Shown: positions 8,468-61,342 of the stretch, piece after piece | Layout of the letters: the number at the start of each line of letters is the position of its first letter | How positions within the stretch are numbered: position 1 is the first letter of the stretch | Virus record (IMG/VR): IMGVR_UViG_3300048599_000435 | Span: 1 to 64,000 of that record | Length of the DNA: 64,000 bases | Reading direction: 5' to 3' (one strand) | Source: a virus | Program-made: the position numbers and the translations under genes | The notes under the pieces: model-generated | Told to the model about the DNA's origin: nothing | Seen by the model: only the letters and a program-made list of their open reading frames with translations | Database searches by the model: none

Positions 8468-8946
8468 TGAACAACACCGACAACGGGGCGATCACGGAGG
8501 GCGGTGTGTGGGGCGGTGTCGCCGCCGCGATGGGCGGTGCCGTCCGCGCCATTCAGTCCCCTTCCGTTACCAAGCGGCAGTTCTGGACGACGGTGGTGAC
8601 GGCGACGTTTTTCGGGGTGGTGACCGGCTTCATCGTTATGTGGCTGTACTCGGACCGGGTGCCGCCGCACCTGGCCGCGTGTGCCGGGGCGGGGGTGGGC
8701 CTGTTCGTGTCTGAACTGATGAAGCTGCTGATGAAGGTTATGCAACGGGCGAGCGACCGATTGATCGACGGCGTGGACGCGAGACTGGACGCGGCCGGTT
8801 GGAAGGCGAACTCGCAGACCAAGACGGACATCAAATCGGATGTTAAACCGAGTCCGTCTGCGGTTTTGCAGGTTCCGCCGCCGCCGGCCGGAGGTGCAAA
8901 TGGATCCGACCCCACCGGACCGACCGACCGACCCGTCCGGCAGTGA
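8467..8946 (+). CDS. holin-like membrane protein
   Basis: Two or three predicted transmembrane helices (TTVVTATFFGVVTGFIVMWLY, ACAGAGVGLFVSELMKLLM) and a charged tail. Confidence 0.5.
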   Translation: MNNTDNGAITEGGVWGGVAAAMGGAVRAIQSPSVTKRQFWTTVVTATFFGVVTGFIVMWLYSDRVPPHLAACAGAGVGLFVSELMKLLMKVMQRASDRLIDGVDARLDAAGWKANSQTKTDIKSDVKPSPSAVLQVPPPPAGGANGSDPTGPTDRPVRQ

Positions 8947-9109
8947 CGGGTGGGGCGACCCGTCCAAGTTCCTGCTGGCGATGTTCCTTTGGGTGTCGGC
9001 GATGGTGGGGACGTGGCAGGGGTGCGAGGCGAGGCACGACCGGCGGCGGATCGACGAGCAGTTGCGGGAGATCAAGGCGCTCATCGAGGCGAAGCAGAGT
9101 TCAAAATGA
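8900..9109 (+). CDS. small single-pass membrane protein
   Basis: Trimmed to the ATG at 8900, preceded by GGAGG. Transmembrane segment FLLAMFLWVSAMVGTW, then a coiled C-terminus. Confidence 0.45.
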   Translation: MDPTPPDRPTDPSGSDGWGDPSKFLLAMFLWVSAMVGTWQGCEARHDRRRIDEQLREIKALIEAKQSSK

Positions 9110-9491
9110 CGGCCCCCGGCACGCGGCTGATCCGCCGCTTGGCGTCGCTTCGGAAGGCGGCGTGCCCTTCAACGATGAACGGGGCGGTGTCCTTCCACTC
9201 CGGCGGTTTGGTGAAGTGGATTTCGTAGTATGGTGGCCCGGCGGGCGGTGAGGTCGGGTGGTACAGCCAGACGAGCGGGTCGGATGTCGGCGTGGGGCGG
9301 TGGGTGAAGGCGACGGACACGAGGTGCGGTTTGGCCCCGGCGGCGACGGCCTTGGGCAGGTCGTACACGGGCCAGGCGACGGCCTTCTCGGCCCCGGCGG
9401 CGGGACGGCCAGGTTGGAAGTCGGTTGTCATCAGGGCACCGATGAACACGACACACACGGCGAGGGACAGTCGATGAAGCCAGCGGACCAT
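9081..9491 (-). CDS. secreted or membrane-anchored hypothetical protein
   Basis: N-terminal signal/anchor LSLAVCVVFIGALM. Third codon positions are G/C-rich when read codon by codon. Confidence 0.6.
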   Translation of the reverse strand: MVRWLHRLSLAVCVVFIGALMTTDFQPGRPAAGAEKAVAWPVYDLPKAVAAGAKPHLVSVAFTHRPTPTSDPLVWLYHPTSPPAGPPYYEIHFTKPPEWKDTAPFIVEGHAAFRSDAKRRISRVPGAVILNSASPR

Positions 9492-9806
9492 GTGGCGGAC
9501 CCAGTGGGTGACGGCGCGGCCGATATCCCCCCGAAGGACTGCTGCTGCGACGCGCCGTTCCCGAGTCCGTGTACGGACGGGTCGCAGTACGTCCAGGTGT
9601 GGCCGTGCGTCGAGGGGGTGAAGGGCGACTGCTCGTGGTTCGACCTGTCGAGCCTGACTTTCGCCCCTACACCGGCAGCGGCGGCGGCCAAGAAGCCGTG
9701 CGGCGGCGGGGCGAACGCCTTCTCGGTGATGCAGGAGGCGGTGGCCAAGGGGTTCGGCCTTGATGACTTGAAGAAACTCGCGGTCACGTTGGACAAGTTG
9801 AAGTAG
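9474..9806 (+). CDS. Cys-rich small protein
   Basis: G/C-rich third codon positions; CCCDAPFPSPC..C..C. Start is uncertain (ATG 9474 or GTG 9492). Confidence 0.5.
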   Translation: MKPADHVADPVGDGAADIPPKDCCCDAPFPSPCTDGSQYVQVWPCVEGVKGDCSWFDLSSLTFAPTPAAAAAKKPCGGGANAFSVMQEAVAKGFGLDDLKKLAVTLDKLK

Positions 9807-9903
9807 TCGATGTCTTGTCCCGCATCGCCGGGTAGCTTATTGTAGCCGACGGAAATGTCGAAAGTCGCGGCCGATTTCCGGTACTGCTTTATAATATTGC
9901 AGA

Positions 9904-9927
9904 CCGGCCGTGCGGTGGAAGTCACGG
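9904..9927 (+). promoter_or_regulatory. conserved 25-nt motif, copy 1
   Basis: CCGGCCGTGCGGTGGAAGTCACGG, 32 nt before the ATG at 9960. Confidence 0.5.
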
Positions 9928-9959
9928 GTGTCAACTCGACTCGTAGAGAGGCAGCCAGT

Positions 9960-10592
9960 ATGAAGTGGTCTACGGTGTGGGTTCTGTCGGCGGCGACATT
10001 CTGCGGGGCGGCTCCACCTGTCGTCACGTTGCCGTCCGAGGTGCCGGGCGAAGTAGCCGCTTTCGTGGTGGTACAGGCGAAGGTCGATGGTGCCAAGGCG
10101 GTCAAGTTTCTCCCGCTCGACGCCGGTCTTTCGGTGTTCCCATCGGGTCTCCTCAGCGATCAGACCGTGACGGTGGTGGTGGCCCAGCGGCCGGGTCGAT
10201 ACCGGGTGTTGGCGTACGCCGGCAACGCCGACGGCGCGTCCGAACCGGTGACGACGACGGTCGTGATCGGTGGTGCCGTTCAGCCGCCGCCGATTGATCC
10301 GCCGCCGGTGACGGGCGGGAAGAAGTTCTTCCTTATCGTTCGGGCACCGGGTCCGATCCAGCCGGCATTCGAGAAGGTGCTGAACCTGCCGGCATGGAAG
10401 GACTTGAAGAATCAGGGGCATCTGATGAAGGACGTGCCGGCGAACGAGTTGCCGATGAACGTGAAAATGCCGCCCGTTCTGCCGAGTCTGTTGGCGTTCA
10501 GCGTAGCTGCCGATGGGAAATCGATGAGCAGTGTGGGCGACCCACAACCGGTTCCGCAATCCGATGACGCCATCCGAGGGCTTATCAAGTGA
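9960..10592 (+). CDS. secreted hypothetical protein
   Basis: Trimmed to MKWSTVWVLSAATFCGAAPP (signal peptide). Confidence 0.6.
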   Translation: MKWSTVWVLSAATFCGAAPPVVTLPSEVPGEVAAFVVVQAKVDGAKAVKFLPLDAGLSVFPSGLLSDQTVTVVVAQRPGRYRVLAYAGNADGASEPVTTTVVIGGAVQPPPIDPPPVTGGKKFFLIVRAPGPIQPAFEKVLNLPAWKDLKNQGHLMKDVPANELPMNVKMPPVLPSLLAFSVAADGKSMSSVGDPQPVPQSDDAIRGLIK

Positions 10593-11903: not shown

Positions 11904-12197
11904 ATGCGGATCCTCGACCTGTGGGCGACGCAGCCGGTGTCGAAGAGGCGGATGCGTCAGTTCGACCTGGGTGTCGAGGACGACGGGTTGCCGCCGGTGC
12001 TGGTGGCCCTGTGTCCGGACGGCGAGTACGAGGTCCGGGACGGGCACCACCGGCTCGCGTACTACCGCCTTCAGGGCAAGGAAAAACTGGACGACGGCGA
12101 GTACTTCGTGATCCACGTTGACGAGTGTCGTCGCCGGCTTGGTCGGATCGACGAGGTGATAGAGTGGAACGGCCTGTTTGAGGCGGTGAAATCCTGA
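11904..12197 (+). CDS. ParB-like nuclease domain protein
   Basis: YEVRDGHHRLAYY core motif of ParB/Srx-type N-terminal domains. Confidence 0.6.
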   Translation: MRILDLWATQPVSKRRMRQFDLGVEDDGLPPVLVALCPDGEYEVRDGHHRLAYYRLQGKEKLDDGEYFVIHVDECRRRLGRIDEVIEWNGLFEAVKS

Positions 12198-12218
12198 CCG
12201 TGCGGGATAAGACACGGA
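12196..12218 (+). promoter_or_regulatory. conserved motif, copy 3
   Basis: GACCGTGCGGGATAAGACACGGA, directly after the stop at 12197. Confidence 0.45.
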
Positions 12219-12283
12219 TAGAGTGGCCCTGCCGGCTGGCGAACCGGAGATGATGGATCGGTCTGAAAACCAAGGAGGTTGGG

Positions 12284-12640: not shown

Positions 12641-12715
12641 TGACGGAAATCCCGAGCCGGCGGGTCGAGACCGGCGTGAGTCGCCAGTGGCTGCGGTCGT
12701 CACCGGAGGGTGGGC

Positions 12716-13000: not shown

Positions 13001-13354
13001 ATGAAAACCGTCTTCTCGCCGATGGACGATTTCGATTCAAGGCGCGAGATTTTTCGGCAACTCCACTCGCTTTCGCCGGCCGACCGGATCGTCGTCCTGC
13101 GGCACTTTTGCGACATGGTGAACGCGGGCGGCAGTGGGGTGAAACCGAAGCGGGCGATGATGGAGTCGGTGTGGAACGCCTACCGGTCGGACGCCTGGGA
13201 CCGGCGGCTGACGAGTGAGATCTACTGCGACCTGTGGCTGCTGGTGACGCAGTACAAGCTGTGCCCGATCAGGCTCGGTGTCGTCCTGGAGCGGTGGGCG
13301 CGGTTACCGAAGTCTATACCGCCGTTGCCGGCCCGGCCGCCTCGACCTCGGTGA
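13001..13354 (+). CDS. hypothetical protein
   Basis: 117-aa ORF of balanced composition. Confidence 0.55.
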   Translation: MKTVFSPMDDFDSRREIFRQLHSLSPADRIVVLRHFCDMVNAGGSGVKPKRAMMESVWNAYRSDAWDRRLTSEIYCDLWLLVTQYKLCPIRLGVVLERWARLPKSIPPLPARPPRPR

Positions 13355-14805: not shown

Positions 14806-15261
14806 ATGTTGAAGCTGACCTTTTCTGGTGACGGTGAGGTGTTGGGATCGACCAACGAGTGGCGTGACCGGCCAAAAAAGGTGATGGCGACTGTTCAGCC
14901 GCCGAGGAAGGCGCGGGACCGGTCGGAGAAGTACTGTGCGACGTGCTTACGTATCCGAGTGTACGGGGTTTCGACCTGTCTGCCGTGTCTGACTCGGATG
15001 GGCACATCGGTGGCGGCGACGGTGCTGGTGTACCCGCACGCGGTCGGTTACCGGGTGCAGGTGTCGAACCTGAAGAAGATCGTGGCGGAGATTCGCAAGT
15101 ACGGGGTGGAGCCGCCGGCGAGGTGGTGCGAGGTGGCGGACGGGCGGACGGGTAGGCCGAAGAAGAAAACGACGCCGATGAGCCGTGATGCGCGGGCTGT
15201 GACCGGGGCGACGGCGGTGTTCGTCCGGGACGGGCGACACCGGCTGGCACCGGACGGATGA
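14806..15261 (+). CDS. hypothetical protein with CxxC..CxxC motif
   Basis: Trimmed to the ATG at 14806, after GAGGAAGG. Contains CATCLRIRVYGVSTCLPC. Confidence 0.5.
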   Translation: MLKLTFSGDGEVLGSTNEWRDRPKKVMATVQPPRKARDRSEKYCATCLRIRVYGVSTCLPCLTRMGTSVAATVLVYPHAVGYRVQVSNLKKIVAEIRKYGVEPPARWCEVADGRTGRPKKKTTPMSRDARAVTGATAVFVRDGRHRLAPDG

Positions 15262-15264
15262 CTC

Positions 15265-15289
15265 CCGGCCGTGCGGGACAAGACGCGGA
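15265..15289 (+). promoter_or_regulatory. conserved motif, copy 5
   Basis: CCGGCCGTGCGGGACAAGACGCGGA, 18 nt before the ATG at 15308. Confidence 0.45.
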
Positions 15290-15307
15290 AGAATCAGGAG
15301 ACGCGCC

Positions 15308-24286: not shown

Positions 24287-24423
24287 CCGGCCGTGCGGCC
24301 AAAGTCACGGACGCGGGATGTAAGGACCACGAGGCGGTTTTGATTAACCAGGCCGTGCTGGTAAAGTCACGGACGCAATTTGCGATGCATATGTTTTCCA
24401 GGCCGTGCTGGTCAAGACACGGA
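24287..24423 (+). promoter_or_regulatory. three tandem copies of the conserved 25-nt motif
   Basis: Copies at 24287-24311, 24348-24373 and 24398-24423 (GGCCGTGCKGG..AAGWCACGGA). Confidence 0.5.
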
Positions 24424-28505: not shown

Positions 28506-28532
28506 GTGCCAGTCTTTTCCTGCTGGCCCAGG
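28506..28532 (-). repeat. solitary CRISPR-repeat unit (SRU-a)
   Basis: 27 nt identical to the hairpin-containing 3' part of the array repeat, in the same orientation as the array. Confidence 0.6.
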
Positions 28533-28581
28533 AATCACCGGCCGGTCTCGCCTACCGATTGGCGGGATCGGCTTTCTGTCG

Positions 28582-33371: not shown

Positions 33372-33848
33372 GTGCCAGTCTTTTCCTGCTGGCCCAGGTT
33401 GTTTGATACGCACGTGAGCCTCGGCACCCCGCCGAACTCGTCCGTGTGCCAGTCTTTTCCTGCTGGCCCAGGTTGTTTGACATGTCGGCGGGTGTCGGGA
33501 CGGTGGATATCGGGCCGGGGTGCCAGTCTTTTCCTGCTGGCCCAGGTTGTTTGATTGCGGCGCGTGAGCGTGGCCCAGTTGCCACCCAGGGCGTGCCAGT
33601 CTTTACCTGCTGGCCCAGGTTATTTGACGGTGTCACTTGGCACCGCCATTTTCGAGCCAGCGGTTGTGCCAGTCTTTTCCTGCCGGCCCAGGTTGTTTGA
33701 CGACTAGTGTCAGTAGCCCAGTGGCGTGGGCCAAGTCGCGTGCCAGTCTTTTCCTGCTGGCCCAGGCTGTTTGATGCTCAGGTTGTTTGACGTCGGTCTT
33801 GCGGATTCTGGGGGTGCCAGTATTTTCCTGCTGGCCCAGGTTGTTTGA
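33372..33848 (-). CRISPR. CRISPR array, 7 repeats (35-36 nt) with 38-39-nt spacers
   Basis: Repeats start at 33372, 33446, 33520, 33593, 33666, 33740 and 33814. Minus-strand repeat is TCAAACAACCTGGGCCAGCAGGAAAAGACTGGCAC, with a 3' hairpin GCCAG-N10-CTGGC. Confidence 0.85.
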
Positions 33849-33873
33849 TAGCAAAGGTCATAAACTATTACTG

Positions 33874-35703
33874 CTACACACTTTGCGGTATCGTCTGCGA
33901 GAGGGTCGCCTTCCGCCTCGGCTTGAGCAACGTCTTCTTCGGCTTCTTTTTCGTAACCGCTTGCCCAGCCTGGTCGTCAGGCGGGCGAGTGGGGTCGTCG
34001 GTATCGCCGTCATCGGGCCGCTCGGCGAGCATGGTCAGCAGGTTCAGGGCGGCGTTCTCGTCCTGATCCCACTCCGCGCCGCACGCCGTGCAGGTGTGGG
34101 TCAGGCGGCTGCGGTCGAACGTCTGGTCGGACCAGCAGGCGTGGCACCGGGAGGTGGTGCCGTGCGGGGCGAACTCGGCGACCGGGCAGCGGCCGTTCAT
34201 CCGCAGGCATTGTAGGAGCAGGCCGACGGCCGCCGCCCGCATGTACTCCTTCCTCGCCCGCGTCGGGTTGTCCTCTTCCGGCCGGTCGTCCCTGGCCATC
34301 CGGGCGACGGCCAGTTTCTCCACCGCCAGCCGGCCGTACCGACCGCCCATCTCGGCGGCGAACTTGCGGTAGACGTCCAGCCGGCGACGGATCGCCCGCC
34401 GGCCGCACGACACGAACGCCATCTCCAGTCGCACGTCCGCGTCCCGCCACTCCAGTAACTCGTTGTGGCGTGGCGCGATGTCGGCATCTTGTCCCGTGCC
34501 GTCGGGCGTCGTCAGTTCGTCCCACCGGGTCAACAGCGTGTGCAGCCGGTTGTACCCGCGCCACTGGCGGACAGTGGTGGTTGCCTCAAGGAACGCCTCC
34601 GGCAGCGACTCTCGCGAAGCGTCGATCCAGTCGGCCAGCCGGTCCCGCTCGGCGTTGAACAGCCGGTCCCGCTCGGCCTGGGCCTCCTCGCGGCGGGTCC
34701 ACAGGGCGAGCAGGTCGGGCGGCAGTGTCAGTTCGCCCCGGCCGCCCCGGTCGTCGGCCCAGCAGGCGACCCGGAGCGAGCCGTCCGGCCGCAGCCGCCA
34801 GCCGACGTCGATCCCGCACTTGCCGTCCTTGTCCTCGACGGGTCGGTCCGGCACGGAGACGACGAACTGGACTGACCAGTCGTCGTAGGCGGTCGGCGGC
34901 TCGTCCCGCCGCTTGCGGGTGTGCCACCCCTGCCGGCGAACCAGGTGTACCCACTTGACGGTGCCGCCTTCGGGCAGCGGCCGGTGCGCCTTCACCCGCA
35001 GCGTCGTCCAGACCGGACGCCCCCGGTCGGACGCCAGCCGCAGGTGAACCAGTTTGACGTTCGGGTGGCCGGGGATCGACTCGATCCGGACGCGGGTGTC
35101 CTCGCCGGCGTACACGTCGGCGGCCGACAGGCCGTTCTGGATCTGGGCGGACAGTCGGCCGTCGCGGTCCCAGCGGCGGAAGCGGACGGGGCCGAACGGT
35201 GTGGATGATGCCGCCCGTTCGGCCGCTTCGGCGAGGGCCAGCTTGGTCCCCCACCAGACGGCCGAGGCGTTGTACGCGGCCTTCTGCCGGGCGAAGTGGG
35301 CGGCCGTCTCGGCCTTCTGAGCGGCCTTCCATGCCGGCGTGGCGTGCAGGGCCTTCATGGCGGCCGACCGGGCCGCGTAGGCCAGTTTCAGTTTTGCCCT
35401 GGCGTCGAGGACGGCCATGCGGAGGTCTTCCGACGCCACCTCGGCCCGCTCGCGGCCCTTGTACGCCTGCACCTCGGCGACGGCCGCGTCCCGTTCGGCT
35501 TCCAGTCGGGACACGACCGCGTCGGCCTCGGCCAGTTCCGGCGACATGGCCCGGCGGATCGCGTCCAGGTTGGCCCGCTTCAGGTTCTCCAGTTCGACCA
35601 GCCCGTTGTAGTACCGGTGGGCCGAGTACATCCAGTCAGCCAGCCGCCGCTCTTGGTCGGCCGACATCCGATAGACGTGAAATGCGAACACTTTGGTAGG
35701 CAC
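33874..35703 (-). CDS. TnpB/Cas12-like RuvC nuclease (compact type V effector candidate, 609 aa)
   Basis: RuvC-I KCGIDVGWR, RuvC-II RLAVEKL, zinc finger CHAC..CTAC, RuvC-III DQDENAALNLL. TnpB-like N-terminus FAFHVYRMSADQERRL..YYNGLVE. The array starts 25 nt after its stop. Confidence 0.8.
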   Translation of the reverse strand: MPTKVFAFHVYRMSADQERRLADWMYSAHRYYNGLVELENLKRANLDAIRRAMSPELAEADAVVSRLEAERDAAVAEVQAYKGRERAEVASEDLRMAVLDARAKLKLAYAARSAAMKALHATPAWKAAQKAETAAHFARQKAAYNASAVWWGTKLALAEAAERAASSTPFGPVRFRRWDRDGRLSAQIQNGLSAADVYAGEDTRVRIESIPGHPNVKLVHLRLASDRGRPVWTTLRVKAHRPLPEGGTVKWVHLVRRQGWHTRKRRDEPPTAYDDWSVQFVVSVPDRPVEDKDGKCGIDVGWRLRPDGSLRVACWADDRGGRGELTLPPDLLALWTRREEAQAERDRLFNAERDRLADWIDASRESLPEAFLEATTTVRQWRGYNRLHTLLTRWDELTTPDGTGQDADIAPRHNELLEWRDADVRLEMAFVSCGRRAIRRRLDVYRKFAAEMGGRYGRLAVEKLAVARMARDDRPEEDNPTRARKEYMRAAAVGLLLQCLRMNGRCPVAEFAPHGTTSRCHACWSDQTFDRSRLTHTCTACGAEWDQDENAALNLLTMLAERPDDGDTDDPTRPPDDQAGQAVTKKKPKKTLLKPRRKATLSQTIPQSV

Positions 35704-35737
35704 TGGTTGATCCTTTGACTGGTGGCTGTGGATGCAG

Positions 35738-35762
35738 TCCGTGTCTTGCCCCGCACGGCCGG
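35738..35762 (-). promoter_or_regulatory. conserved 25-nt motif, copy in the cas12-like leader
   Basis: CCGGCCGTGCGGGGCAAGACACGGA, 34 nt before the GTG at 35703. Confidence 0.5.
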
Positions 35763-35789
35763 GTGTGTCAGCGGACCGGCACCAGATGA

Positions 35790-35887
35790 GTGCCAGTCTT
35801 TACCTGCTGGCCCAGGCTGTTCTGCCCTGGACGTGTGTCCGACCCACGGCACTTGCCGGTCTTCACCTGCCGGCCCAGGTGTCTTTA
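35790..35887 (-). CRISPR. promoter-proximal mini-array (2 degenerate repeats, one 28-nt spacer)
   Basis: Repeats at 35853-35887 and 35790-35824. The upstream one keeps the hairpin through a compensatory A-T to G-C change. Confidence 0.55.
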
Positions 35888-35892
35888 GCTGT

Positions 35893-35920
35893 ATTATACA
35901 CGTCTCCAATCGGGATGCAA
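35893..35920 (-). promoter_or_regulatory. sigma70-like promoter P1 (drives the mini-array, the cas12-like gene and the array)
   Basis: TTGCAT-CCCGATTGGAGACGTG-TATAAT with a 16-nt spacer. Confidence 0.6.
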
Positions 35921-37831: not shown

Positions 37832-38256
37832 GATTGCACCTTGGATACTTGTGTAACCCGCTTGGCCGGCGCGTCGGCGTCCTCGATCCATACGGTCATC
37901 TTCGCGTCGATCAGGTGGGCGACCGGGACGCCGAAGAACTCGTCGATCTTGGTGGCCCATTCGGCGATCTTCTTCTTGCTGATGCGACTACCTTCTTGCA
38001 GGTTGATGCGTCCTCCTCTGGCATAACTGAGGCATCGCCACTCCCGGTCGCCATCACTTACGAGCAGGATGTTGCCGGGAACGTAGTGCTTTCCACGATT
38101 GTTGTAGGTGCCGCCTGGGACGATCCACATCTCCATGTCGCCGTACTTGACCAGCACCCGCGTCGGCGGACTGCCCCGCCGGTCGATGCCAGGGTGCGGG
38201 TGCGTGCTGGCGTGTCGGGTCATCTGGCTGAGCACTCGGGTCACGACCTTCTTCAT
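37828..38256 (-). CDS. hypothetical protein
   Basis: 142-aa ORF of balanced composition. Confidence 0.55.
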   Translation of the reverse strand: MKKVVTRVLSQMTRHASTHPHPGIDRRGSPPTRVLVKYGDMEMWIVPGGTYNNRGKHYVPGNILLVSDGDREWRCLSYARGGRINLQEGSRISKKKIAEWATKIDEFFGVPVAHLIDAKMTVWIEDADAPAKRVTQVSKVQS

Positions 38257-38381
38257 CACTTGTCCCCCACGAGTTTGTTGACCGCATCGGTCAGGAATGG
38301 GCTGTGCTGTTCACAGCACGCCTGTTGCTCGTGCCGGTATTGACCTGCTGGCCCAGGCCGTGGAGTACGATCCTGATTCAT
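38256..38381 (-). CDS. 41-aa micro-ORF containing a CRISPR-repeat-like sequence
   Basis: Starts 2 nt after the upstream stop and ends overlapping the next start. Its RPGPAGQY stretch is encoded by the repeat-like unit. Confidence 0.3.
   Translation of the reverse strand: MNQDRTPRPGPAGQYRHEQQACCEQHSPFLTDAVNKLVGDK
38331..38364 (-). repeat. degenerate solitary CRISPR-repeat unit (SRU-b)
   Basis: Plus-strand GTGCCgGTatTgaCCTGCTGGCCCAGGccGTgGA compared with the array repeat. Confidence 0.5.
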
Positions 38382-41012: not shown

Positions 41013-41200
41013 TTCTTCGCCTCCCGTGCTTCCTTGATGGCCGCCGCCCCGAGTTTCGCGAGGAACTGGTTCAATTCTTCTCTGGCCTGGTCGAGCCGTT
41101 CGTCCAGCGGGTGGTAGTGCGTGTTGTAGTCATGCAACGCCTTCCGCAGGGCCGCGTCGAGGCGGTCGTACTCGGCCAGTTGTTCCTGATTGACGGTCAT
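41009..41200 (-). CDS. hypothetical coiled-coil protein
   Basis: TGATG-coupled ATG. Confidence 0.5.
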   Translation of the reverse strand: MTVNQEQLAEYDRLDAALRKALHDYNTHYHPLDERLDQAREELNQFLAKLGAAAIKEAREAKK

Positions 41201-41367
41201 CACTTGGCACCCCCGATGAGCAGGATGTAGGCGGCGATGGCGAGCAGGCCGACAAGGTTAAGGACGGCGTACCAGTCTTGTCCTGCTGGCCCAGGTTGTT
41301 CGATGACTGTGGCACTCACGGCCGGGTGCGGCCGGTCCTCGAAGTCGGGCAGGTCTTCGTCTTGCAT
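41200..41367 (-). CDS. 55-aa membrane micro-protein containing a CRISPR-repeat-like sequence
   Basis: ATG lies 8 nt after GGAGG. C-terminal transmembrane helix VLNLVGLLAIAAYILLIGG. Its EQPGPAGQDWY stretch is encoded by the repeat-like unit. Confidence 0.35.
   Translation of the reverse strand: MQDEDLPDFEDRPHPAVSATVIEQPGPAGQDWYAVLNLVGLLAIAAYILLIGGAK
41269..41303 (-). repeat. solitary CRISPR-repeat unit (SRU-c)
   Basis: Plus-strand GTaCCAGTCTTgTCCTGCTGGCCCAGGTTGTTcGA: 32 of 35 positions match the array repeat. Confidence 0.55.
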
Positions 41368-41442
41368 CCGTCTGTCCTCCGTTTGGGGCAAGAGGGGAGT
41401 AAACTGCTACTCCCCTCGGCGTCGGTCGGATCACTCGTCGTC

Positions 41443-42408
41443 TTAGACCGGGCCGGTGTAGCCGTAGATGATGTCGTTCCCGTCGGCCCACGGCGGGCAG
41501 CACAGGACCGCGTACCCGGTCGTCGTTTCGCCGTCCTCGTCGTCGGCCGTCCAGTACACCAGGCCGACCGTGTCGCGGTCGCTGTCCGGGACCATCGCCT
41601 TGGCGGTCTCGAACAGTTCGACGGCTTCGACCGGCGGGTTGCGGGGTTCCTTCCAGCCCGGCAGGTTCGACCCGTCGAACTGCCAGCCGGGGTACTCGGC
41701 GGCCAGCCGCTCGTCGTGGTAGACGGCCTTGCACTCCCACCCGTTCGCCACGCACGCCCTAAGGCGGTCGCTGCCGTTCGCCTCGGCCCACGCCGCCACC
41801 TCCTTCGCCTCGCGGTCGGCATCGGCCTGACGCTCGGCCTTCGACGCCGCGTCCCGTTCGGCCGCCAGTCGCTTCCGCTCGGCCTCTTCAAGCTCTTTGG
41901 CCTTTTCCTTGGCGGCGGCCTCGCCTTTGAAGTGGGCCGTCTGCACGCCGAGTTCGGCCATCAGCGCGGCGACGTCGGCGGCACCGGCCGACCCGTCGGT
42001 GAACGGCCGCAGCAGGTCGGCCGGCACCATGAACCCGGCGGTCGACCCGTGCCCAAATTCGCCGGGTCGACTGTTCAGGTTCCCGGAACACCAGTAGGTG
42101 AACTCGTAACAGCCGCCCTTCGTGCCGGTCTTCACCACGAGGTCGGCGTCGTCGTTGAGCATCCAGAACAGTGCCCGGCAGATCGGCTCGTCGGAGTCGG
42201 CCGCGTACTTCACCCGCACCTCTCTGGTGGGGGCCGGCGGCAGCCCGTGGGCCACGCGGAAGTCCACGGCGGCGAGGCCGTCGGCCGGGCAGTCTTTGAC
42301 CTTCAAGCTGATGTCGATGTCCACTTTGAACACGGTCCGTACTCCTGGCACCACCTCGGTGCCGTTCACCCCGTCGGCCGGCGGACCTCCCGCCGTTGCT
42401 CGACCCAC
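41443..42408 (-). CDS. hypothetical protein (central coiled coil)
   Basis: About 310 aa. Start is uncertain (GTG at 42408, or GTG at 42369 coupled to a 24-aa leader ORF). Confidence 0.55.
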   Translation of the reverse strand: MGRATAGGPPADGVNGTEVVPGVRTVFKVDIDISLKVKDCPADGLAAVDFRVAHGLPPAPTREVRVKYAADSDEPICRALFWMLNDDADLVVKTGTKGGCYEFTYWCSGNLNSRPGEFGHGSTAGFMVPADLLRPFTDGSAGAADVAALMAELGVQTAHFKGEAAAKEKAKELEEAERKRLAAERDAASKAERQADADREAKEVAAWAEANGSDRLRACVANGWECKAVYHDERLAAEYPGWQFDGSNLPGWKEPRNPPVEAVELFETAKAMVPDSDRDTVGLVYWTADDEDGETTTGYAVLCCPPWADGNDIIYGYTGPV

Positions 42409-43794: not shown

Positions 43795-43822
43795 GTTATA
43801 CACTACTCCATTTGGGAGTCAA
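43795..43822 (-). promoter_or_regulatory. sigma70-like promoter P2
   Basis: TTGACT-CCCAAATGGAGTAGTG-TATAAC. Confidence 0.55.
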
Positions 43823-44836: not shown

Positions 44837-44899
44837 TGGTCGTCCCTCGGATGGTTGGCGTCTTTTGTCGGTCTTGCCCGGCCGACTCCGGGTGTGGGT

Positions 44900-45016
44900 T
44901 CAGAACCCGTACTTGGCGAAGGCCCGGTCAACCCAGGCGTCGGCGTGCGGGCGGCGGTTGCGGTACTGGCCGCTCTTGCAGAAGTAGGCGGCGACGAGGT
45001 CTTGCAGGGAAGGCAT
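44900..45016 (-). CDS. 38-aa micro-ORF
   Basis: ATG lies 8 nt after GGAG; G/C-rich third codon positions. Confidence 0.3.
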   Translation of the reverse strand: MPSLQDLVAAYFCKSGQYRNRRPHADAWVDRAFAKYGF

Positions 45017-58804: not shown

Positions 58805-58991
58805 CACGCCTCCAGTCCTCGGAACACGCTCTCGTGCCAGTGTTAGCCTGCCGGCCTAGGCTTTCCGACCGCCACTTCCGTCTCGCCATGTGCCACCGCA
58901 TAGCGCTGGCGAACCACTCCCACCGGCCGCCAAACTCGCCCAGGCGATCCGCAAGAACGCAACCACCGAAAGTGACGGCCGGACGGCTCAT
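58794..58991 (-). pseudogene. truncated paralog of the C-terminal domain of 61725..62405
   Basis: LADRLGEFGGRWEWFASAMRWHM aligns with LADRLDEVGEKWKWVSYAFRWCM. The reading frame then runs into SRU-d. Confidence 0.3.
58834..58866 (-). repeat. degenerate solitary CRISPR-repeat unit (SRU-d)
   Basis: Plus-strand GTGCCAGTgTTagCCTGCcGGCCtAGGcTTTcc. The hairpin is kept with one G-U pair. Confidence 0.45.
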
Positions 58992-61049: not shown

Positions 61050-61342
61050 CGGATCGACTCCTCGTAAGCCTTCCTGTGGCCTGGGTTTATGATCCACGAC
61101 ATAACGAACTTCTCCCGGATCAGCGGCGTCGTGATCGGCGGCGTTACGACCCGTAGGTACAGCTTCGCCGCCTCGTACCACGCCCCCTTCGTCGGGAACC
61201 CGTTCTTGTACCGGTCGATCAGGAGCAGGTACGGCTCCCACCTGGGGTCACCGTTCTCCTGCAACCAGTCCGCGTACGCCGACAGCGTCTTGACGCAGTG
61301 GGGGAACTGTCGCAGGAGGTCCCGCCAGGCGGCCTCGTCCAT
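61046..61342 (-). CDS. short TIGR02996-like protein
   Basis: LSAYADWLQENGDPRWEPYLLL. Confidence 0.6.
   Translation of the reverse strand: MDEAAWRDLLRQFPHCVKTLSAYADWLQENGDPRWEPYLLLIDRYKNGFPTKGAWYEAAKLYLRVVTPPITTPLIREKFVMSWIINPGHRKAYEESIR

Follow-up and report, generated by a model that had tools for sequence, protein, structure and literature searches.

The window analysed here, the first 64 kb (64,000 nucleotides) of IMG/VR virus record IMGVR_UViG_3300048599_000435, shows at positions 41269-41304, on the minus strand, a solitary repeat unit (SRU), that is, a full-length copy of the 36-nt repeat of the CRISPR array carried by the same phage, which lies inside a 55-codon open reading frame (ORF). 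With a probability of about one half, this SRU would be a cis-acting site for binding or processing by the phage's own Cas12m in an operon mRNA, overlapped by a lineage-specific micro-gene. The record is a complete virus of 109,753 bp with direct terminal repeats, and the window, with a G+C content of about 65%, contains plus-strand genes from 1 to 27 kb and minus-strand genes from 28 to 64 kb. The cas12m gene (type V-M; 33874..35703, minus strand) encodes a protein of 609 aa with the D-E-D RuvC residues present, the RuvC motifs starting at IDVGW 298, VEKL 461 and DQDEN 546. Among solved structures this protein matches the Cas12m of PDB 23vw (E 4.6e-39), Cas12m2 (7e-12) and GoCas12m (4.5e-10), and its Pfam match is Cas12f1-like_TNB. 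Directly downstream of cas12m, on the same strand, is the array (33372-33849), with seven repeats of 36 nt and spacers of 37-38 nt. Its repeat reads GTGCCAGTCTTTTCCTGCTGGCCCAGGTTGTTTGA(C/T) on the plus strand and (G/A)TCAAACAA-CCTGGGCCAGCAGGAAAAGACTGGCAC on the transcribed minus strand.

The copy at 41269-41304 reads GTACCAGTCTTGTCCTGCTGGCCCAGGTTGTTCGAT on the plus strand and lies on the same strand as the seven array repeats. It is identical to the array repeat at 32 of 36 positions, and at 33 of 36 when compared with the T-ending variant; an earlier reading of the same DNA from its letters alone (the sequence-only reading) had counted 32 of 35 over a slightly shorter span, and this count holds. 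A chance origin of the match is excluded by shuffled controls, in which the 36-mer gave no match at three or fewer mismatches and the 27-nt core gave at most one match at eight or fewer, the core of the copy having two. Among the solitary units of this phage it is the most array-like, with eight of the nine 5' bases identical to the repeat, and no second repeat was found within 100 nt. Rfam and tRNA scans gave nothing. On the minus strand the array helix GCCAG...CTGGC becomes GCCAG...CTGGU, so that the hairpin is kept with a terminal G-U pair, as had been noticed before. In scaffold numbering, the unit keeps the helix -22..-18/-7..-3 (GCCAG/CUGGU, one G-U), the stem -27..-24/-17..-14 (CCUG/CAGG) is intact, and G14, A35 and C36, equivalent to G(-23), A(-2) and C(-1), are present. 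Judged from its bases, the copy retains every element of a Cas12m CRISPR RNA (crRNA) scaffold.

These elements are those described for the crRNA of Cas12m2, where the scaffold is 36 nt long and repeat-derived, nucleotides -36 to -30 are disordered, bases -22..-17 pair with -8..-3 next to a stacked stem, G(-23) and A(-2) form a non-canonical pair, and recognition of C(-1) is base-specific (PMC10442227). Like the scaffolds of Cas12m2 (PMC10442227) and GoCas12m (PMC11013384), the unit belongs to a 36-nt repeat with the scaffold in its 3' 27 nt, shows the helix and stacked stem together with G(-23), A(-2) and C(-1), lies on the strand from which cas12m is transcribed, and has no trans-activating crRNA (tracrRNA). 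Unlike them, it stands alone, 7.4 kb from the array (about 7 kb in the sequence-only reading), inside an operon and an ORF, and it is followed by phage coding sequence with neither a second repeat nor a captured spacer. Cas12m cuts its own pre-crRNA within the repeat, upstream of the scaffold, without need of a tracrRNA, and it binds DNA without cutting, even with the D-E-D triad (PMC11013384; PMC10442227); its silencing acts through this binding (PMC11013384).

The copy is one of many. Units were sought by a mismatch scan and a covariance model, counting non-array hits at E < 0.2, and this phage genome contains 17 such hits, about ten of them strong solitary units and several weaker, the strong ones all oriented like the genes around them. 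Of the 17, twelve are confined to non-coding DNA, which makes up 12% of the genome by a crude gene call (88% coding), a distribution with a binomial probability by chance of about 2e-8. Where a next start was found it is 17-183 nt downstream of the unit, most often 17-86 nt, and the distance is 65 nt for the unit at 41269, 71 nt for 38331, 64 nt for 12184 and 65 nt for 24339. An alignment of 25 units, from this phage and one relative, shows a common register with the helix at 15-19/30-34 and the stem at 10-13/20-23, while G14, A35 and C36 are nearly invariant. Over these 25 units the pair cells are paired in 94.7% of cases and seven of the nine pairs change on both sides; none of 500 shuffles reaches the observed pairing or covariation, and slid controls drop to 24-48%. 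The presence of over a dozen units ahead of phage genes suggests that Cas12m may act on the phage's own mRNAs too.

Among the other units on the minus strand, one (28506..28541) shows a core identical to the repeat at 27 of 27 positions and lies at the end of the minus-strand gene block, three degenerate ones (35853-35888, 35790-35825 and 35737-35772, together 35737..35888) are located between a promoter and cas12m, one (58834..58869) lies 26 nt before a gene start, and one is at 92838; two further units, at 83292 and 85563, are on the plus strand. The unit at 38331..38366 (minus strand) is inside a 41-codon coupled ORF (38256..38381), in the same frame as the 41269 unit (PGPAGQ). This ORF, whose start is 1 nt past the upstream stop, has at its end the AAGTGATG overlap also seen in the 55-codon ORF, and its coding signal is weak (10.5 without the repeat). 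The unit at 70900-70935 (L014 6900-6935; minus strand) has both helices compensated (GGCGG/CCGCC and CGTG/CACG) and covers, in a different frame, the first 14 codons of a 69-codon ORF (70731..70940, minus strand) with CxxC...CxxC motifs. Three of the four ORF-internal units share a reading frame, a number too small to carry meaning. Other elements, forming a second class, share the layout of stem and helix with different helix sequences, for example CCCGGCCGTGCGGGACAAGACACGGAC, and occur also ahead of plus-strand genes; the members of this class (9806-9841, 12184-12219, 12642-12677, 15255-15290, 24339-24374, 35737-35772 and 44865-44900) lie 17-65 nt before start codons.

The closest Cas12m, with 57% identity, is encoded in a 50.7-kb JGI contig (L011), whose array repeat, GTCACACAACCTCGTGGCGTAGGTCAACACGCCAAC, differs at 13 of the 27 core positions from that of the studied phage and shows the same helices. 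This contig contains seven solitary units (8886, 9871, 9921, 13172, 13246, 15243 and 15723), which match the L011 repeat at 20-26 of 27 core positions and the repeat of the studied phage at 11-14; conversely, the units of the studied phage share 20-27 of 27 core positions with their own repeat and 12-16 with that of L011, the values for the unit at 41269 being 25 and 15, respectively. Two placements are common to both phages: a pair of units just before cas12m, and one unit at the end of a gene block (28506 in the studied phage, 15723-15758 in L011). Because the units of each phage match its own repeat, they appear tied to the cognate effector and would not represent a general promoter or terminator motif. 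In L011, a 68-aa gene that scores well holds the 9871 unit in its 3' end and reads it in the frame used at 41269. Three further relatives (L009, L010 and L012) show neither array nor units in the stretches examined; L012 (Logan ERR1352923_2767) encodes a 613-aa Cas12m-like protein at 8636-10477, and the 14 kb examined there contain no array and no recognisable units. A search for Cas12m among cellular genomes led to one distant Chloroflexota contig.

The ORF around the unit (41367->41200, minus strand) has the product MQDEDLPDFEDRPHPAVSATVIEQPGPAGQDWYAVLNLVGLLAIAAYILLIGGAK, made up of an acidic N-tail with eight acidic residues against one basic (K/R type), a Pro/Gly linker encoded by the SRU, and a C-terminal hydrophobic helix. 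The linker, I-E-Q-P-G-P-A-G-Q-D-W-Y, includes the EQPGPAGQDWY that the sequence-only reading had translated, and the transmembrane helix that it had proposed corresponds to a Kyte-Doolittle maximum of 2.44 at residues 34-52. Its account of the ends is also borne out by direct reading: a Shine-Dalgarno sequence, GGAGG (41376..41380, minus strand), stands 8 nt before the ATG at 41367, and the ORF ends AAG TGA TG, so that its stop overlaps the start of the next gene (GTGATG; 41203->41009, minus strand). This next gene encodes 64 aa, starts 65 nt after the SRU and has a codon score of 0.64 per codon. The 43 codons outside the repeat show a G+C content at third codon positions (GC3) of 0.84, and their codon log-likelihood is 27.1, against a mean of 18.3 for true-frame windows of equal length; the 99th percentile of wrong-frame and antisense windows is 17.4, and p is about 0.0013, in agreement with the earlier claim that the copy lies inside an apparently real gene. 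Inside the repeat GC3 is 0.42 and the codon score falls. The source database likewise calls a 55-aa protein here. No homologue of the micro-protein was found in Pfam or PHROGs, phmmer against 1.84 billion representative proteins returned only the protein itself, and the best match in an Atlas feature search was 0.88 (DUF6480), below the level of a trustworthy lead. Since it combines a gene-like codon score with no homologue, the micro-ORF looks translated yet lineage-specific. The three changes of the unit against the array repeat are AAA>GAA, AAA>CAA and CAC>TAC (K>E, K>Q and H>Y), all at first codon positions, and each removes a basic residue from the acidic N-tail; at the level of the RNA they affect the 5' part, which is unstructured, a loop column that varies, and a G-C pair that becomes G-U, all tolerated by the fold. 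This pattern, of three events only, fits selection on both the RNA fold and the peptide.

Since no promoter-like site was found near the unit and a TTGACT, 16 nt, TATAAC site is present at 43795..43822 (minus strand), the likely start of the operon containing the SRU, the unit is most likely transcribed inside that operon. A promoter-like site of the same architecture lies before cas12m, at 35893-35920. Upstream of the micro-ORF is a gene encoding 321 aa (41443..42408, minus strand) with 64-69% identity in relatives; its relatives were not found in viral or metagenome contigs, and only three were found in the protein collection. It ends in TAA just before a GACGACGAGTGA stretch (41443-41460), and in L011 (1955-1967) the same stretch is still coding (D-D-E-stop), so that the studied phage has lost the last few codons of this gene. 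After its stop comes a perfect 10-bp hairpin, GAGGGGAGTA-GCAGTT-TACTCCCCTC (41392..41417, minus strand), which is terminator-like or could be a 3'-end stabiliser. Hairpins of differing sequence occupy the same place in L011 and in another relative, L013. The ribosome-binding stretch AAACGGAG(G/A)ACAGAC...ATG, which reads AAACGGAGGACAGAC before the ATG of the micro-ORF, is common to the first post-hairpin gene in both, where a 77-aa gene starts at that stretch without a unit. Homology of the 64-aa gene with this 77-aa gene is unsupported (E 1.9).

With the identity, fold and family of the element, the match of the units to their own repeat in each phage and the coding statistics of the ORF established, the following course of events is proposed, in which we infer the binding and cleavage by Cas12m and any effect on expression, including its sign. 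A minus-strand mRNA started at the operon promoter near 43.8 kb would carry the 41269 unit as a Cas12m scaffold, and Cas12m from the neighbouring locus would bind it there. As on pre-crRNA, cleavage would take place immediately 5' of the scaffold, with the protein remaining bound to the downstream fragment. In the micro-ORF this would place the break between its codons 21 and 24, which would end synthesis of the 55-aa membrane micro-protein and undo the coupling of gene 41203->41009 through the stop/start (TGATG) overlap. The upstream RNA piece would end near the 10-bp hairpin at 41392-41417, and the RNA of the downstream genes would receive a 5' end capped by Cas12m. Ribosomes on the micro-ORF would unfold the scaffold, so translation would compete with Cas12m binding. 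Self-targeting of phage DNA by the RNA of the unit is unlikely if the protospacer adjacent motif (PAM) is T-rich, since the bases before the 'protospacer' would be the repeat end (TAC or CAC); characterised Cas12m proteins have a T-rich PAM.

Several observations weigh against a regulatory role of the 41269 unit. Thermodynamic folding gives z-scores of -1.1 to 0.4, near 0, which indicate a weak hairpin and are uninformative; a weak thermodynamic signal is usual for handles that fold on the protein. The covariation signal is partly a two-group effect, with only two array-bearing phage lineages. Gene conversion between array and units could keep their likeness without function. A unit at the position equivalent to 41269 was not found in L011 or L013, and because both relatives are without it the copy may be young and not yet under selection. 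These last points favour a young functionless footprint, in which a repeat was copied from the array between genes by illegitimate recombination or gene conversion and tolerated as a Pro/Gly linker; the recombination footprint had been one of the options of the sequence-only reading. It would also agree with the copy being the most array-like solitary unit (5' bases 8/9), with the relatives starting their first post-hairpin gene at the same ribosome-binding stretch, and with a micro-protein without homologue. That option keeps some probability, as the relatives lack the unit, and is opposed by the kept scaffold and placement: the copy is on the transcribed strand, with the family-typical 65 nt separating it from the next start, every determinant of the scaffold is present and the three changes spare the fold, sibling units occupy common positions in another phage despite only 57% identity of its Cas12m, and the flanks resemble those of the array and mini-array no more than chance allows. 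We regard such a footprint as unlikely. It is somewhat less improbable that the micro-ORF is untranslated and that the region is the 239-nt leader of gene 41203->41009 carrying the unit, the open frame then arising from the high G+C. In line with this, the sibling units are almost all non-coding, no homologue was found for the micro-protein and 55-codon ORFs are common at 65% G+C; against it, the codon score outside the repeat is as high as in true genes and above that of 99.9% of wrong-frame windows, GGAGG is correctly spaced and the stop overlaps the next start, the ribosome-binding stretch is common to a real gene start in relatives, and the three changes are all at first codon positions.

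The unit followed by its next 17-20 nt (GCCGUCCUUAACCUUGUCGG) could instead give a crRNA-like RNA, a hard-wired guide sending Cas12m to host or rival-phage DNA. A complete scaffold followed by unique sequence is crRNA-like, Cas12m silences by binding (PMC11013384), guides with atypical repeats are known (crlRNA, Cracr), and the spacer of a mini-array in L011 matches the studied genome at 19 of 21 positions from guide position 1. However, the guide shows no above-chance match in its own genome, where the best seed matches have 2-3 mismatches in 16, at chance level and none at promoters, or in the relatives compared; the same bases must encode the transmembrane helix, and no downstream repeat sets the 3' end, so a guide role is judged decidedly improbable. 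The array spacers and the guides of the units in general also give only chance-level matches to the phage's own genome. Still lower stands an RNA anti-CRISPR of the Racr or Cracr type, a decoy soaking up the Cas12m of a host or rival or buffering the phage's own, which comes close to the 'decoy or competitor' of the sequence-only reading. It has precedents in the solitary repeat units of phages that act as RNA anti-CRISPRs (PMC10651486) and in viral crRNA-like RNAs that hijack host Cas proteins (bioRxiv 10.1101/2024.10.29.618823). That option fits less well here, since the effector is phage-encoded and the unit matches the phage's own array, while an exact scan for the repeat core gave no match in IMG/VR, in JGI metagenomes or in one genome each of 185,579 prokaryote species, and thus no cellular genome with the repeat. 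Moreover, the unit lacks its own promoter, the definition of Racr candidates requires an intergenic location and no link to cas genes (PMC10651486), and a rival Cas12m would need a matching scaffold, when 13 of the 27 scaffold positions differ between the two phages. A conserved peptide motif as the cause of the resemblance is excluded by the sequence comparisons, even though the 38331 unit shows the same frame (PGPAGQ) in a second micro-ORF and the L011 unit at 9871 is in the same frame in the 68-aa gene: there is no homologue among 1.84 billion representatives, Pfam and PHROGs, most units are non-coding and the 70900 unit is in another frame, and the identity is at the nucleotide level, with GC3 of 0.42 within the unit. 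Hence the conserved protein domain that the sequence-only reading had named as a possible refutation does not explain the copy. Of its options, the processing site fits best, given the family of units ahead of genes and their match to the repeat of their own Cas12m. Beyond that reading, the effector is a Cas12m, of a type that binds DNA without cutting, and the copy is one of many, at the start distance typical of the family.

Two candidate relationships of the micro-ORF region to the array were discarded. An origin of the micro-ORF from a decayed mini-array was rejected, as the tblastn match before cas12m (E 1e-5) is carried by the unit itself, and the flanks of the micro-ORF show no similarity to those of the mini-array or array beyond chance (p 0.29). 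The spacer at 33629-33665 matches the end of the micro-ORF and the start of the next gene (41190-41215) at 22 of 26 positions with one gap, resembling a spacer-repeat junction, and was attributed to chance: the match is significant flank against flank, but 71% of shuffled spacers reach the same score genome-wide. By plain count, the start of the 64-aa gene is identical to the repeat at 18 of 36 positions.

The array also contains a spacer antisense to L011 units (33702-33739, minus strand, between the repeats at 33666 and 33740), which reads ...AGTAGCCCAGTGGCGTGGGCCAAGTCGC on the plus strand. It matches L011 8894-8917 at 22 of 24 positions (E 4e-4) and L011 9885-9898 at 14 of 14, both inside L011 units (8886-8921 and 9871-9906), where the PAM side would read GCTG. 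By these matches the studied phage appears to aim Cas12m at the units of its rival, and such units would therefore be conserved enough to serve as targets between phages. In L011, a two-repeat mini-array between genes (13172-13281) contains a 38-nt spacer that matches the genome of the studied phage, at 19 of 21 positions from guide position 1 at 61260-61280 (E 0.037) and at 17 of 21 at genome position 64251. The match runs antisense to the coding motif 'AYADWLQE', which belongs to a family of paralogous genes; it may reflect a hard-wired guide directed at a multi-copy family, or be due to chance.

Among known systems, Racr (PMC10651486) resembles the 41269 unit: both are single copies of a CRISPR repeat, carried by a phage genome, in which the fold of the repeat is kept. 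Racr candidates, however, mimic the host repeat, are intergenic, have their own promoter and are unlinked to cas genes, whereas this unit matches the phage's own array and effector, lacks a promoter and is enclosed by an ORF with a coding-like score, with cas12m and the array on the same genome. In the search pipeline for Racr, ORFs are masked and matches inside genes count as probable false positives (PMC10651486). CreR, CreA, crlRNA and viral Cracr (bioRxiv 10.1101/2023.03.03.530964; 10.1101/2024.10.29.618823) likewise use degenerate or stand-alone repeats for regulation, not immunity, and the three units before cas12m (35737-35888) resemble that class of crRNA-like regulatory RNAs. Unlike the 41269 unit, whose guide has no such match and which is 5.6 kb from cas12m, the CreR, crlRNA and Cracr RNAs act by a short spacer partly matching a promoter. 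The Cas12m locus of Myxophage MV-1 (bioRxiv 10.64898/2026.09.14.751636) is also phage-borne, with a protein of about 610 aa, the D-E-D residues, an adjacent array and no adaptation genes; its protein is a different one, with the catalytic residues D305, E463 and D555. That preprint, of September 2026, claims the first phage Cas12m, and the words 'solitary' and 'repeat-like' are absent from its text (bioRxiv 10.64898/2026.09.14.751636). In the literature, no paper was found on units cognate to a phage's own Cas12m.

The roles so far known for solitary CRISPR repeats of phages are those of decoys against CRISPR and of RNAs that hijack host Cas proteins. Here the copies match the phage's own Cas12m, their placement is leader-like, and at least one overlaps a gene with real coding statistics. 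As putative natural and compact RNA parts responsive to Cas12m, the units may also have a practical side, and the anti-unit spacer provides a testable case of phage-against-phage targeting of regulatory elements. A wider proposal, tentative and rather doubtful as a whole, is that this phage group uses Cas12m as a post-transcriptional regulator of its own operons, with scaffolds planted ahead of or inside short coupled ORFs; the 41269 scaffold would be dual-coded as a linker of the micro-protein, so that passing ribosomes and bound Cas12m would shut each other out, making a ribosome-versus-Cas switch, and units that are essential and present in many copies would draw the spacers of rivals, leading to fast joint divergence of repeat and units. 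If the regulatory reading of the 41269 unit is true, a CRISPR effector would have been recruited to handle the virus's own mRNAs, and translation would be tied to Cas binding through the overlap of an RNA code with a protein code.

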